From a virus, in the IMG/VR virus record IMGVR_UViG_3300035698_004757, positions 33,673 through 97,672 of that record: a stretch of 64,000 nucleotides of DNA; one strand, 5' to 3'. The notes under the pieces were generated by a model. The model had not been told where the DNA came from and searched no databases. It saw only the letters and a program-made list of their open reading frames with translations. This document shows positions 28,044 to 33,770 of the stretch, one piece after another (positions within the stretch are counted from its first letter, which is position 1; each line of letters starts with the position of its first letter). The position numbers and the translations under genes are program-made.

Positions 28044-28364
28044 ATGTTAATTGACGATTTTATGCGGGGCGTTGCCGTACTGCGGCGATCGAGTGGGCCG
28101 CAGGGGTTCTCCGTGAACCACAACCGACTTGACGACGCGACACAGGGGCAGTGGTTCAAGCCGCGACGCGAAGGCCAAGGCATAGGGTCGCAGGTCTACC
28201 TCGATTGCGAGCCTCCGACGACGTTTGATCGCCCCGACATTCACACGGCTGCGGCAAACGGTGAACTGCGAATGCGCGACTATCTGCCGGGCACGAACAC
28301 AGGTCAGTACGACGAACTTTTGGCGGCAACACAAGACGGGGTGCCGGGTATTGCACCAAATTGA
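28044..28364 (+). CDS. Hypothetical protein
   Basis: RBS GAGGTG. Confidence 0.5.
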   Translation: MLIDDFMRGVAVLRRSSGPQGFSVNHNRLDDATQGQWFKPRREGQGIGSQVYLDCEPPTTFDRPDIHTAAANGELRMRDYLPGTNTGQYDELLAATQDGVPGIAPN

Positions 28365-28462
28365 CACACAAGCGTATTTACCGTACAGTACGCAAACTTA
28401 ATTACACGCTCGGGAACCCCCACCAACGCAATGTTGTGGGCACCCGTAAAAAGGACAATCCG

Positions 28463-31261
28463 ATGACCGTTGCAACTTCCAATTTGGTGCGCGCCCGTAA
28501 AATACTCAAGGACGTATGGGGCTACGACGACTTCCGCAAAGGCCAAGGCGATATCATCGCCAGCCTTGTCGCAGGTGAAGACACACTGGCGGTGCTGCCC
28601 ACGGGCGCAGGCAAGTCAGTGTGCTTTCAAATACCTGCGTTATTAAGCGACGGCACAACCGTTGTCATATCGCCGCTGATTGCGCTGATGAAGGATCAGG
28701 TGGACGACTTAAACGCGATCGGCATCCCGGCCGCGTTTATCAACTCGACGCAAGACGATACAGAGCAGCAAGAGGTGCTGATTGATTTCACATCGGGTGC
28801 CTATAAGCTGTTGTACGTCGCACCCGAGCGGTTGCGCAACAAGGCATTCCGCGAAGCCATGAGCGGGGCAATGATTAACCTACTGGCCGTGGACGAAGCG
28901 CACGCACATCGGCAGGGTAGCGCAATCACCACAACACGGGGCGTAAAGCCAGCCGAGCGCGTACAAGTGGGGGATGTCTTACCGGGCGTCGATCACACAA
29001 CCGGTCGCGTAGCAACTGTCACCGTCCACCGGGTGCGCAAGCGGCCCTTGCGGGTTGGTGAGGGCGTTGACATCTATGTGTCCACAGGCACACTGCGTGT
29101 AACTTGCGACCACCCTGTATTTGTGGTGGGTGTGGGCTACGTGCCTGCTGCGTCCGTTCAACCGGGAGACGAGGTGATTACCAATGCCGACTTGTCTAAT
29201 GTGCAAACAGACGTTTTCGTTGGGGCAGCCTGTTCATTCGTCGCGTCCGAAGTCGCTAACGAGCCACGTATGTTCGTGCAGATGCCTACGGCTGTACCGG
29301 TTGAGCGTGACGCAGTGCTTAAACTGTTCCGCACCGTTGCTGCCAAACTCGAACCGAGTTTGTTGCTCCGTTCAGTGTGGGCGTGCGCGGCAGGGCGCTG
29401 GTTCGTCGCGGCGCATGAACGAGGACAATCCTATGAAGTCGCCCGCAGTACGCTTGAAAGTATCCAAAGCGCTGAAGCGACGCGGCGACCCGTTCACCGA
29501 AGCGACTCGGGGAGGAAATGGGCGGAAAATGCCCAAACCAGCGGCCCGTGTGTTGAAGTGGTTTCCGAGACTACTCCCGGAACATTTGGTTTGTATTGGC
29601 GAGAAGAGGAACGGGCACCCGTGGTACATCAAAGCCGACTTCGCCGACCCACAACAAAAGAAGATCGTCGAAGTGGACGGGGGTTCGCACAAGCCGCTGG
29701 CTGCGAAGAAGCGGGATCGCAATCGCGATGTGCTGTGCGTCAAAGCCGGGTGGTGCGTGTTGCGCGTGACCAACCAAGAGGTGCTGACACAACCACGGGA
29801 GACGAAATCGCGGATCAAAGCGTATTTACGTTCGAGACCGACGGCGCGCAAACGTATTTCGCGGACGGCGTCTTGACGCACAATTGCGTCAGTCAGTGGG
29901 GGCACGACTTCCGCCCGGCGTACCAACGCATTCGTGACGTGGTGGCTGAGATGGATGCAGCGGGTAACCGCCCGACCATTCTCGCATGCACAGCCACATG
30001 CCCGACAGGTCTGGAAGACGACGTGGCCAAAGGCATCGGCATGCGGGAGGACTACACGCGGGTGGTGGCTGATCCGATTCGCCCGAACTTCACATACAAC
30101 GTGATGCACGGCAACATGTGGGCCAACGTCACAGGCATCGTGCGCCGGTTCGATGTGGCAACAGGTCGATACCTTGTGTACACCACCACACGTCGGGCTG
30201 CGGAGATTATTGCGACCAAGATTGAGGACGAACTCGGCAAGAACGTTGTGGCGTTCTATCACGCAGGGCTGCCCAGCCAAGACCGCGAAACAGTACAAGA
30301 CCAATTCAAGAGCGGCGAGCGCCCCGTGGTGTGCGCGACGTGTGCATTTGGTATGGGCATTGACGTGCCGAACATCCGCGCGGTGCTGCACTGCGGTGTG
30401 CCCGGGGCGATCGAAGATTACACGCAGGAGATTGGCCGAGGTGGCCGTGATGGTTTGCCGACCACGGCGTGGCTGTTGTTTGATCCGAAAGGGTTGGAAC
30501 TGCGCAACCAATTCATTGACAGTGCCAACCCACCGTTCGACTTCTACGGGCCGGTGTGGGACTACCTCAAATTGAAGACGCGACCCGGTGAGATTCTTAG
30601 CGAGTCGGGTGCCGTCATTGCTGACGGCATTAAAGACTTAGCCAAGCATCACGATGTGTTTCCCGACGACGACCTGTTGATGCGGTTCAACGCACACAGC
30701 GTGCGGTCGGTGATGGCTACGATGGAATCAAAGGGGATGATTATTCGGCGCGAGTCAAAGGCTGGCACACACGTGCAATTTACCGTGGCCATGATGCAGA
30801 AGCGTGACAAGCTGGTGGACAACCAGCGGTTGGTAGCAGACGCCTTATGGGACTCGCTGGCAGACAAGTTCGATGTCAAGGGGTTGAACTGCGTAGAAGA
30901 CCTTGTGGACGTGACCAAGACGGCGGCAGATTGTGACCTAACCTACATGCCCGCGAAGCGTGCAATGCTGGCGTTGCAAGAGAAGGGGTACTTGGTGATA
31001 GCGGCCAAGTACAATGGCAAGACCACAGCAGTGTCCCCGGCGATGTACAAACAGAACATTGATGACCTGCTGACGCGCGAAGGTGTGGAAGCCAAGCGAC
31101 AGCGCGCACTTGACCGTCTGGATCAGATGGTGGGGTACGTGCATCTGCGAAGCGAGAAGGATCGCATTGACTACCTACGGGCCTATTTCATGGGTGCGCC
31201 TGCGCAGGGTGACGCGGGCGACGAACGATCACTATTTGACCAGAACGGAGACGAAGGATGA
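28463..31261 (+). CDS. recQ: RecQ-family ATP-dependent DNA helicase, intein-interrupted
   Basis: WGYDDFRKGQ, LPTGAGKS, SPLIALMKDQV, YVAPERL, DEAH / CVSQWGHDFRP, CTAT, AFGMGID and QEIGRGGRDG. Confidence 0.95.
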   Translation: MTVATSNLVRARKILKDVWGYDDFRKGQGDIIASLVAGEDTLAVLPTGAGKSVCFQIPALLSDGTTVVISPLIALMKDQVDDLNAIGIPAAFINSTQDDTEQQEVLIDFTSGAYKLLYVAPERLRNKAFREAMSGAMINLLAVDEAHAHRQGSAITTTRGVKPAERVQVGDVLPGVDHTTGRVATVTVHRVRKRPLRVGEGVDIYVSTGTLRVTCDHPVFVVGVGYVPAASVQPGDEVITNADLSNVQTDVFVGAACSFVASEVANEPRMFVQMPTAVPVERDAVLKLFRTVAAKLEPSLLLRSVWACAAGRWFVAAHERGQSYEVARSTLESIQSAEATRRPVHRSDSGRKWAENAQTSGPCVEVVSETTPGTFGLYWREEERAPVVHQSRLRRPTTKEDRRSGRGFAQAAGCEEAGSQSRCAVRQSRVVRVARDQPRGADTTTGDEIADQSVFTFETDGAQTYFADGVLTHNCVSQWGHDFRPAYQRIRDVVAEMDAAGNRPTILACTATCPTGLEDDVAKGIGMREDYTRVVADPIRPNFTYNVMHGNMWANVTGIVRRFDVATGRYLVYTTTRRAAEIIATKIEDELGKNVVAFYHAGLPSQDRETVQDQFKSGERPVVCATCAFGMGIDVPNIRAVLHCGVPGAIEDYTQEIGRGGRDGLPTTAWLLFDPKGLELRNQFIDSANPPFDFYGPVWDYLKLKTRPGEILSESGAVIADGIKDLAKHHDVFPDDDLLMRFNAHSVRSVMATMESKGMIIRRESKAGTHVQFTVAMMQKRDKLVDNQRLVADALWDSLADKFDVKGLNCVEDLVDVTKTAADCDLTYMPAKRAMLALQEKGYLVIAAKYNGKTTAVSPAMYKQNIDDLLTREGVEAKRQRALDRLDQMVGYVHLRSEKDRIDYLRAYFMGAPAQGDAGDERSLFDQNGDEG
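28904..29884 (+). mobile_element. Intein (327 aa, Ala1 ... His-Asn, +1 Cys) in RecQ motif II
   Basis: Splits DEAH|CVSQW. Block A AHRQGSAITTTRGVKPAERVQVGD; block B LRVTCDHPVF; blocks F/G VFTFETDGAQTYFADGVLTHN. Confidence 0.92.
29184..29876 (+). CDS. Nested out-of-frame endonuclease (Zn-finger plus Vsr/DUF559-like) inside the intein
   Basis: Own RBS GAGGTG at 29171-29176; CxxC clusters; ADF...IVEVDGGSH...RDRNRD...GWCVLRV nuclease motif. Confidence 0.85.
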   Translation: MPTCLMCKQTFSLGQPVHSSRPKSLTSHVCSCRCLRLYRLSVTQCLNCSAPLLPNSNRVCCSVQCGRARQGAGSSRRMNEDNPMKSPAVRLKVSKALKRRGDPFTEATRGGNGRKMPKPAARVLKWFPRLLPEHLVCIGEKRNGHPWYIKADFADPQQKKIVEVDGGSHKPLAAKKRDRNRDVLCVKAGWCVLRVTNQEVLTQPRETKSRIKAYLRSRPTARKRISRTAS

Positions 31262-32144: not shown

Positions 32145-33770
32145 GTGACACGTGCATACCTGACAATTGAAGGACCGTGGGCACGCATGAGCGGTGTACC
32201 TGATGAGGTGCGCGACGAAGTGCTGTGTGTCATGGACCCGGATGCTTCACGGCGACAGGCTTATCGTGAGGGTCGGTGGGACGGTCTGCACAAGCTGTAC
32301 ACGGACGACCGTTACCCAGCCGGGTTGACGTTGCAGTTGCATCGACGGCTGGAAGCGACCCCGGGTATTACCGACATCACAGTGCGCAACGAGAACGTGC
32401 CAATGGGCAGCGACCACTTGCATGCGGACTACCTCCCGAAGTCGGTCGCACCTGATGGGCTGTGGGATTGGCAGTTGGAAGGGTGCAGCGCGATGCTCAA
32501 CAGCCCGTGTGGTGCAGTGAAAGTCCCAACTTCTGGTGGTAAGACGTTGATGGAGGCCGCGATTGCGCGGTACGCATTTGAGCATGCCGGGTTGAAGACA
32601 CTGGTGATGACATCGAAGCGCGGCATCCTCGATCAGATGGTGCGGGTGCTGACTGAGGCCGTCGGTGACATTATGACCGTGGGGCAAATGGGTGATGGGT
32701 GCAAAACAGTTGGCGACGTGACGGTGGGTACGGCGCAGACGTTGATCGGCTATCAGCCGACGACGCGACGTGCAAAGATACCCGGTACCAACAAGCGGCG
32801 GCGTACGTTCATTCAGGGCGACCCGGTGATACGTGAGTTGCTGCGCAGCGTGGGTGTGTTGATGTTGGACGAGGCGCACCACACGTCGGCGGTGACGTGG
32901 TACGAGACTGCGATGTATTGCACCGCCCCGTATCGGTTTGGCTTGAGTGGCACCCCGTTGAAGTTCGATGACTACGCAGACGCTCGCATGATAGGTGCGA
33001 CCGGGCCAGTCATCTACGAGATTGATGCCGACGTGTTGATCGCGGCCGGTAAGAGTGCGCGCCCACGGATCGTGATCGTGACGAGCGACGCGGCCAGTTC
33101 GCCAGAGATGCAGCACAACGAGTTTGGCAGATTTGTGCGGGGTAAGTTACGTCCGGGTAAGAAGTGGCCCCCGTACAAGGAGGCGTACAGGTACGCGATC
33201 GTGGACAGTGTGCCGCACAATCAGGCTGTCATTCGCGCAGCTACGTGGATGGTGGACCGTAAGAGGCGTACGTTGATTCTGGCGAGGCAGAAGGACCAAT
33301 GGCGATTGCTCAGGGATATGCTTGAAGCGTCAGGGCTGAACTACGCTGCGCTGTGGGGTGATACAGAGACAAGTGTTCGACGCCAAGCGAAGGAGGCGAT
33401 GGACGAGAAGAAGTTGCAGGTGATCCTTGCGACTGTCATCTTTGACGAAGGTGAGGACGTGCCCGGTATTGACGCGATGGTGTTGGCCGAGGGCGTGCGA
33501 TCGAACACGAATGCTGTGCAGCGTATTGGCCGTGGTATGCGGCGTGAGAAGCGAGGGTACGAAGATGTGTGGATAGTGGACTTTGCCCCCACGTCACACC
33601 CGGTGTGCCTTGAGCATGGGAGCGACCGGTTCACGTCGTACGTTGATGAGGGCTACCACACGATGGTGTGGGATCAGTGGCCGAGTGAGGACGAAGAGGC
33701 GGCCGGGGCGTTGCTGTTGCCGTTTGAGCAGTGGGACAAATGTTACGAAGACGCGGAAGGTGGCGAGTAA
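32145..33770 (+). CDS. SF2 DNA helicase (UvsW/Rad25-like)
   Basis: PTSGGKT, DEAHH, GLSGTP, EGEDVP and QRIGRGMR. Confidence 0.9.
   Translation: MTRAYLTIEGPWARMSGVPDEVRDEVLCVMDPDASRRQAYREGRWDGLHKLYTDDRYPAGLTLQLHRRLEATPGITDITVRNENVPMGSDHLHADYLPKSVAPDGLWDWQLEGCSAMLNSPCGAVKVPTSGGKTLMEAAIARYAFEHAGLKTLVMTSKRGILDQMVRVLTEAVGDIMTVGQMGDGCKTVGDVTVGTAQTLIGYQPTTRRAKIPGTNKRRRTFIQGDPVIRELLRSVGVLMLDEAHHTSAVTWYETAMYCTAPYRFGLSGTPLKFDDYADARMIGATGPVIYEIDADVLIAAGKSARPRIVIVTSDAASSPEMQHNEFGRFVRGKLRPGKKWPPYKEAYRYAIVDSVPHNQAVIRAATWMVDRKRRTLILARQKDQWRLLRDMLEASGLNYAALWGDTETSVRRQAKEAMDEKKLQVILATVIFDEGEDVPGIDAMVLAEGVRSNTNAVQRIGRGMRREKRGYEDVWIVDFAPTSHPVCLEHGSDRFTSYVDEGYHTMVWDQWPSEDEEAAGALLLPFEQWDKCYEDAEGGE

Follow-up and report, generated by a model that had tools for sequence, protein, structure and literature searches.

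The 64,000-nucleotide stretch of viral DNA analysed here (positions 33,673 to 97,672 of IMG/VR record IMGVR_UViG_3300035698_004757; the whole stretch is called the window and is numbered from its own first letter) carries a RecQ-like superfamily 2 (SF2) helicase gene that is interrupted by an intein. The insertion splits helicase motif II. The upstream part ends in ...VDEAH, the insert runs from AHRQGS to VLTHN, and the downstream part resumes with CVSQWGHDFRP; once the intein is excised the DEAH...CVSQWGHDFRP motif is contiguous again. Frame 0, the helicase frame, is open throughout. Within the intein and on the same strand, a second open reading frame (ORF) in the +1 frame is predicted to encode a homing endonuclease (HEN) composed of zinc ribbons and a Vsr/DUF559-type nuclease domain. 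Its TGA ends 8 nt short of the intein end, so that 693 nt would be double-coding. A sequence-only reading of the window had proposed this arrangement. Direct reading reproduces all of its coordinates, both for the intein with its 327 open codons and for the +1 ORF of 230 residues, together with the spacing of GAGGTG from the ATG, the position of the stop and the estimate of about 690 double-coding nucleotides (Table 1).

Table 1. Features of the interrupted helicase gene and of the nested endonuclease gene (window coordinates)
Feature	Position	Strand	Remarks
Promoter-like TTGACA-N17-TACAGT	28361..28389	+	10/12 consensus positions; consensus match only
RecQ-like SF2 helicase gene, intein included	28463..31261	+	Pfam DEAD 1e-18, Helicase_C 1.7e-20
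Intein, frame 0	28904..29884	+	327 codons, no stop; Ala1 to His-Asn, then Cys+1
N-terminal Hint subdomain	28904..29188	+	Intein residues 1-95; blocks A and B; T67..H70; pLDDT 92-98
Shine-Dalgarno-like GAGGTG	29171..29176	+	7 nt 5′ of HEN ATG; within host codons D-E-V
+1-frame TGA stop	29175..29177	+	Two codons 5′ of HEN ATG; +1 open stretch from 29178
Predicted HEN gene, 230 residues	29184..29876	+	+1 frame over intein; (29184-28904) mod 3 = 1
Two Cys4 zinc-ribbon modules	29193..29378	+	HEN residues 4-65; C4/C7/C30/C34 and C45/C48/C61/C65
Frame-0 spacer	29189..29734	+	Intein residues ~96-277; low pLDDT, unconstrained
Vsr/DUF559-type nuclease domain	29517..29852	+	HEN residues 112-223
C-terminal Hint subdomain	29735..29884	+	Intein residues 278-327; blocks F and G; end VLTHN; pLDDT 75-96
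Helicase C-extein	29885..31261	+	Begins with Cys+1; holds Helicase_C

The HEN matches Pfam DUF559 (PF04480) with an E-value of 7.7e-10 and a score of 39.1 bits against a cutoff of 20.6, and DUF559 is likewise matched by all 49 aligned relatives. A profile of these 49 relatives retrieves PDB entry 3HRL (E 8.8e-12) and I-Bth0305I (3R3P, E 0.011). The AlphaFold model of the HEN, built on the same alignment, has a predicted local distance difference test score (pLDDT) of 85. Comparison of model residues 112-223 with known structures gave Z 12.3 for 3R3P (root-mean-square deviation 2.6 Å over 91 residues), Z 12.2 for 3HRL (1.8 Å, 87 residues) and Z 10.5 for Vsr (1CW0; 2.1 Å, 96 residues); Foldseek by itself was weak on the nuclease model (E 0.011). 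The nuclease type named in the sequence-only reading is thus borne out by a profile match above threshold and by fold Z scores of 10.5-12.3. Residues D152, E163, D165, H169 and D178 are invariant in the 49 sequences, and the window HEN retains all 17 of the family-invariant positions. Judged from the motif pattern rather than from superposition, the acidic and histidine residues probably correspond to Asp51, His69 and Asp97 of Vsr.

The N-terminal part of the HEN contains the zinc-finger repeats that had been read from the sequence, in the form of two Cys4 modules. The second Cys4 set aligns with the conserved ribbon of the family. In profile comparisons the ribbons are weakly similar to eL24 and to MYM/FCS-type zinc fingers, with zf-FCS matched in three of the 49 members. 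C-terminal to the ribbons lies a conserved NNPM...RGGNG segment. The sequence-only reading had also placed a NUMOD-like helix in this protein, which did not hold: no Pfam match to a NUMOD domain was obtained in the window HEN or the 49 relatives, and what is present is just a conserved NNPM..R.K.S helix.

The predicted structure of the 327-residue frame-0 product resembles mini-inteins and Hint proteins (2LWY, 7CFV, 6FRG, 1MI8 and 6QAZ; Foldseek E 1.9e-6 to 1e-3, probability 1.00). In the model, residues 1-95 and 278-327 together form a Hint fold. Residues 100-270 are poorly predicted (pLDDT 40-55). Profile searches of both frames agree with the assignment made from the sequence, giving DUF559 above cutoff in the +1 frame and Hint in frame 0, the Pfam Hint matches being sub-threshold (under the gathering score). 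The Thr-x-x-His of block B (T67..H70), the terminal H326-N327 and the nucleophile Cys+1 are all present. T67 and H70 are near-invariant in an alignment of 50 inteins, and Y318, V325, H326 and N327 are conserved.

This layout is found again among relatives. A pattern scan of IMG/VR located at least 236 relatives of the HEN, and 80 loci were kept. The HEN lies at +1 of the host gene in 76 of the 80, and that same host frame is stop-free and forms part of an ORF of 500-2200 residues. Other open frames occur in just nine of the IMG/VR loci and no alternative spanning frame recurs. Six of seven contigs from prokaryote genomes or metagenome-assembled genomes have the same +1 layout. Searching with the +1 protein (tblastn) revealed relatives within annotated helicase genes of Vibrio phages (159E43-1b, CP-T1 and others), Corynebacterium phage phi673 and Pseudomonas phage MR14; in all four isolate phage lineages (CP-T1, phi673, MR14 and 159E43) an intact HEN ORF sits at +1 of an open helicase coding sequence. 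We note that loci L001 (phi673 gp43), L002, L003 (MR14 gp44) and L004 (CP-T1 gp10) are deposited as ‘helicase’, with the intein and the nested HEN unannotated.

The family junctions, DE↓C(F/V)xxGT ... VHN↓C(H/Q), fall at the Walker-B/DExH motif. Sampled hosts comprise RecQ, SNF2, ResIII-type and XPD-like helicases and the Terminase_3 large subunit. In loci with a clean N-terminal junction the HEN starts 71-105 codons past the intein start, and it stops 3-22 codons before the intein end. Because the +1 offset and these boundaries are common to most of the related loci examined, across at least five nucleoside triphosphatase (NTPase) families, the composite of Hint and HEN appears to be old and mobile as a unit. 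The sequence-only reading had proposed that a separately translated endonuclease invaded a mini-intein; the separate gene stands, while an invasion in this RecQ gene does not, as the layout is shared by at least five NTPase families. Pairwise identities of Hint and HEN co-vary (Spearman 0.64, permutation p 0.001), consistent with their inheritance as one unit. We also note, on an IMG/VR contig, a 1645-residue RecQ-like ORF (L010:978-5912) which, from its Pfam matches, apparently holds three inteins, two with LAGLIDADG/Hom_end and one at the DEAH site with a +1 Vsr-like HEN.

To quantify selection on the two frames, the number of stops expected in the absence of constraint was estimated by shuffling synonymous codons within each of 72 non-redundant HEN ORFs. 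The host frame has 20 stops against 684 expected, with 7-15 expected per locus, and all 20 occur in a single aberrant locus (L054, discussed below). The third frame has 1177 stops against 1092 expected. In the window overlap there are no host-frame stops where 7.3 are expected, and not one of 500 shuffles was stop-free. The depletion has a simple codon signature: across the family, T never occupies the third position of a HEN codon that precedes a codon beginning with AA, AG or GA (0/4401), compared with 23.8% elsewhere; the window HEN alone gives 0/49 against 19.4%. As NNT and NNC are always synonymous, the host-frame stops (T followed by AA, AG or GA) can be removed without altering the nuclease. 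We infer that this synonymous NNT-to-NNC escape is why the +1 offset is tolerated.

Comparison of homologues frame by frame supports the same division. In pairwise codon alignments at 65-80% nucleotide identity, amino-acid identity is 0.635 in the HEN frame, 0.447 in the host frame and 0.434 in the third frame. Substitutions concentrate at the third position of HEN codons (26/21/72 at positions 1/2/3 between L052 and L078). This third-position bias and the higher identity of the HEN frame indicate that the HEN is under purifying selection. The host frame is indistinguishable from the non-coding third frame in identity, yet it is stop-free, and the spacer is thus constrained just to stay open. 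The sequence-only reading had described the centre of the intein as not protein-like; its low pLDDT and its non-coding-like identity agree with this, and we conclude that the frame-0 middle of the intein is an unconstrained and, by prediction, disordered spacer kept only stop-free. The +1 ORF reads as an intact, separate and selected nuclease gene.

These data also bear on whether the frame offset is real. As the window comes from a metagenomic IMG/VR contig, a pair of compensating indels made in assembly could in principle have displaced a HEN that really lies in the intein frame, the outcome that would have undone the sequence-only reading. Such an artefact is contradicted by the recurrence of the same +1 offset in most of the related assemblies examined, including the four isolate lineages. 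The HEN moreover has its own ATG and Shine-Dalgarno (SD) sequence and an in-frame stop two codons upstream, and an assembly error would not produce the synonymous stop avoidance seen in the host frame. We regard this explanation as effectively refuted.

A stop-free host frame is also hard to reconcile with a trans-splicing gene. ‘Fractured genes’, in which split inteins flank a free-standing Vsr-like HEN, have been described (Dassa et al. 2009, PMC2677866). They resemble the present element in combining a Vsr-like HEN with Hint domains in phage DNA-metabolism genes, and their HEN ORF runs a few codons into the start of the downstream intein half. They differ in that their host is divided into two trans-splicing genes, whereas the host frame here is open across the HEN and under selection. 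If the present locus were of this type, each half of the helicase would be translated as a polypeptide of its own, and the openness of frame 0 would be fortuitous. The HEN family does occur in such a setting: at L083:2677-3468 a member lies in a truly fractured split-intein SNF2/DEAH-like gene, whose host frame stops after Hint-N and resumes before Hint-C, which is exactly the form of Dassa et al.; L053, L061 and L062 are free-standing copies of the HEN. In the window the host is not divided into two ORFs, since frame 0 reads through from 28361 to 31261 and stops are selected against. More generally, a host frame that is stop-free over the HEN in 76 of 80 loci, despite the number of stops expected in each, makes sense only if read-through translation is required. 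No start codon or SD is known ahead of Hint-C in the window, though no search was directed at one. A fractured gene is therefore highly improbable at this locus.

Expression of the HEN would begin at its own ribosome-binding site, where GAGGTG-N7-ATG makes a favourable start signal. The motif GACGAGGT-N7-10-ATG is likewise found in L002, L003, L004, L050 and L056. The GAGGTG is unpaired in the minimum-free-energy fold, the start region of the HEN is less structured than shuffled sequences (z +1.9), and no RNA hairpin that would hide the ribosome-binding site was found in this region. The +1-frame TGA two codons before the ATG implies that the HEN must initiate independently. We note that the SD of the HEN (GACGAGGT; window 29167-29186) is written in the Asp-Glu-Val codons at the end of Hint-N, and that it is conserved at the nucleotide level between the high-GC phage of the window and phages of Vibrio and Pseudomonas.

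Programmed ribosomal frameshifting from the helicase/Hint-N frame, which would yield the HEN as a fusion, was considered as another route to expression. Three observations are in its favour: many loci have no obvious SD; one database protein of 496 residues carries the HEN at its C-terminus; and in L054 (2230-3423, 2820-4490) the N-extein, Hint-N and HEN are continuous in one frame, with Hint-C and the C-extein in the other. An indel or error of 1 nt could account for the L054 arrangement; the alternative is a natural fusion of IntN and HEN accompanied by a split intein. In the window, however, the TGA leaves almost no room for a fusion retaining the first zinc ribbon, which would require a shift within six nucleotides; over 71 loci, the upstream stop precedes the first CxxC by a median of 20 codons. 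The database members point the same way. An exhaustive HMMER search gave 997 cluster representatives of the family at E<=1e-30. Among the best 150, all except the 496-residue protein are of stand-alone size (158-329 residues), and in none is the HEN embedded centrally in a long protein. Database HENs are nearly all 190-330 residues long, which argues that they are separately encoded. Frameshifting is accordingly a very unlikely source of the nuclease.

The first residue of the window intein requires comment. Its first codon (28904-28906) is GCA, encoding Ala1, whereas Cys1 is found in all 53 cleanly delimited relatives (17 loci were omitted from the junction table, and boundaries were set by hand-checked motifs). 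The class 1 nucleophile (Cys, Ser or Thr at position 1) is consequently absent. By direct reading, as opposed to a class profile, the class-3 WCT signature is absent too: Tyr replaces Trp, block F (VFTFETDG...) has no Cys, and the penultimate residue is His. It does retain the Thr and His of block B, the His-Asn pair and Cys+1, the set on which class-2 (Ala1) inteins such as Mja KlbA rely. Three base changes separate TGY from GCA, and Ala1 cannot therefore have arisen by one recent mutation. The intein is possibly of a class-2-like type, or else splicing-dead.

The proposal that the +1 ORF is a working nuclease gene nested in a working intein has to be weighed against a number of observations. 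An Ala1 intein without the class-3 signature may not splice, in which case the helicase is perhaps dead and the open frame a mere remnant. The window HEN is divergent, and a megablast search of phage records with the window helicase gene gave no match; neither the HEN nor Hint-N had a hit at E<=1e-3 in a word-indexed protein search. Close relatives of the C-extein were sought in IMG/VR for intein-less alleles, a patchy distribution among sister alleles being the mark of active homing, and none was found. The co-variation of Hint and HEN could partly stem from shared phage phylogeny. The starts of many family members lack an obvious SD. No internal sigma-70-type promoter for the HEN was found, the sole promoter-like site being that at 28361, which implies that the HEN rides on the helicase mRNA. 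The sequence-only reading had the nuclease decoupled from RecQ; this survives for translation and fails for transcription, so that any uncoupling is translational only. Finally, translation of the +1 ORF, DNA cleavage and splicing are predictions from sequence and models.

Some of these points would fit a different history, in which the +1 ORF is the decaying, unexpressed relic of an endonuclease that was once free-standing or in frame, so that what is left amounts in effect to a mini-intein carrying a long junk loop. The divergence of the window HEN (<=39% identity to any relative) and the hint of degeneration given by Ala1 are in keeping with this, and expression of the +1 ORF is itself a prediction. 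A relic would not be expected to remain as the window HEN has, with the ORF intact, every family-invariant position kept, SD and ATG retained and a confidently modelled fold; across the family, the third-position substitution bias and the higher identity of the HEN frame also speak against decay. Decay is in our judgement unlikely, although it is the least improbable of the alternatives considered.

The locus is probably a composite selfish element in which a contiguous Hint intein and an independent +1 HEN gene together occupy the DEAH box of RecQ. The element would have entered this gene, a phage RecQ-like helicase, at its DEAH (Walker-B/motif II) box. Its helicase-frame component would be an intein whose N- and C-terminal Hint subdomains are joined by a meaningless disordered spacer of ~180 residues, around which the precursor protein would splice. 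The 230-residue HEN, with zinc ribbons and Vsr/DUF559 domain, would share the helicase mRNA and be translated there from an SD and ATG of its own. It would cut intein-less alleles near the DExH-coding DNA, and repair would then copy the whole unit (homing).

A wider reading of the data, which we consider as apt to be wrong as right, is that the window represents a large, old and undescribed composite family, which counts ~1000 clusters at the 50% identity level and over 230 loci in IMG/VR. Such a family would have kept a fixed +1 overlap while hopping between NTPases of at least five families (RecQ, SNF2, ResIII, XPD-like and terminase), each time into the Walker-B motif. The +1 register would be evolvable through synonymous T-to-C erasure of stops, and nested initiation may keep the dose of nuclease low and inverse to helicase translation.

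Endonucleases in overlapping frames of inteins have been reported. Contiguous actinophage inteins with overlapping-ORF HENs include an anti-sense LAGLIDADG, an anti-sense Vsr-like and a same-strand frame-3 endonuclease-VII-like type, in DNA polymerase, minor capsid, terminase and thymidylate synthase (ThyX) genes, and invasion of an intein by a free-standing HEN was proposed by the same authors (Gosselin, Arsenault & Gogarten 2025, bioRxiv 10.1101/2025.01.02.630785). The contiguous intein, the structureless in-frame middle and the intact HEN in another frame are all found here as well. The present elements differ in having a same-strand +1 Vsr/DUF559 nuclease with zinc ribbons and in occupying the Walker-B motif of helicases and terminases; their carriers are phages of Vibrio, Pseudomonas and Corynebacterium together with many uncultured phages. 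Out-of-frame homing endonucleases occur in cyanobacterial dnaX inteins (Phillips et al. 2026, bioRxiv 10.64898/2026.09.14.751524), and ShiLan has a hidden HNH insert with no splicing domain (Arsenault et al. 2025, PMC11855218). In both, as here, the insertion is open in the host frame and conceals an endonuclease in a frame that overlaps it. They differ in nuclease family (HNH in ShiLan; the dnaX paper makes no mention of Vsr), in host and in insertion site.

Among Vsr-like homing endonucleases, the EDxHD enzyme I-Bth0305I is encoded in a group I intron and carries NUMOD-2/helix-turn-helix repeats (Taylor et al. 2011, PMC3239194; PDB 3R3P). It shares with the window HEN the Vsr-like catalytic fold and a bipartite architecture with an N-terminal DNA-binding region. 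The window HEN has Cys4 zinc ribbons and the NNPM/RGGNG segment without a NUMOD match, and its sequence is nearer to DUF559 (3HRL). A full-text literature search did not bring up any same-strand +1 HEN of the Vsr/DUF559 type within helicase or other Walker-B inteins, a provisional result as most subscription journals were outside its scope. The sequence-only reading had cautioned that its novelty needed checking. The general concept has been published before with other types of nuclease, and the same-strand +1 Vsr-like variant is provisionally new.

The element offers a clean and statistically strong case of same-strand dual coding over ~700 nt, in which one frame encodes a real enzyme and the other is selected only for readability. 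The number and spread of the relatives suggest that hidden HENs are a widespread phage element, missed by annotation pipelines, and not rare curiosities. One nuclease family links the fractured genes of Dassa et al., free-standing Vsr-like HENs and contiguous inteins, which supports the acquisition of HENs by invasion. Cultured carriers (CP-T1, phi673 and MR14) make translation of the nested ORF, splicing around the junk loop and homing at Walker-B directly testable.

Two further features of the locus may be recorded. The longest ORF of the helicase, 28361..31261 on the plus strand, has a TTG start, and this TTG coincides with the promoter-like TTGACA-N17-TACAGT; the true start of the helicase is likely the ATG at 28463, which has AAGGA before it. 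On the opposite strand, an antisense ORF of 379 residues (29372-30511) runs over both intein and C-extein sequence; GC-rich DNA commonly contains ORFs of this kind.

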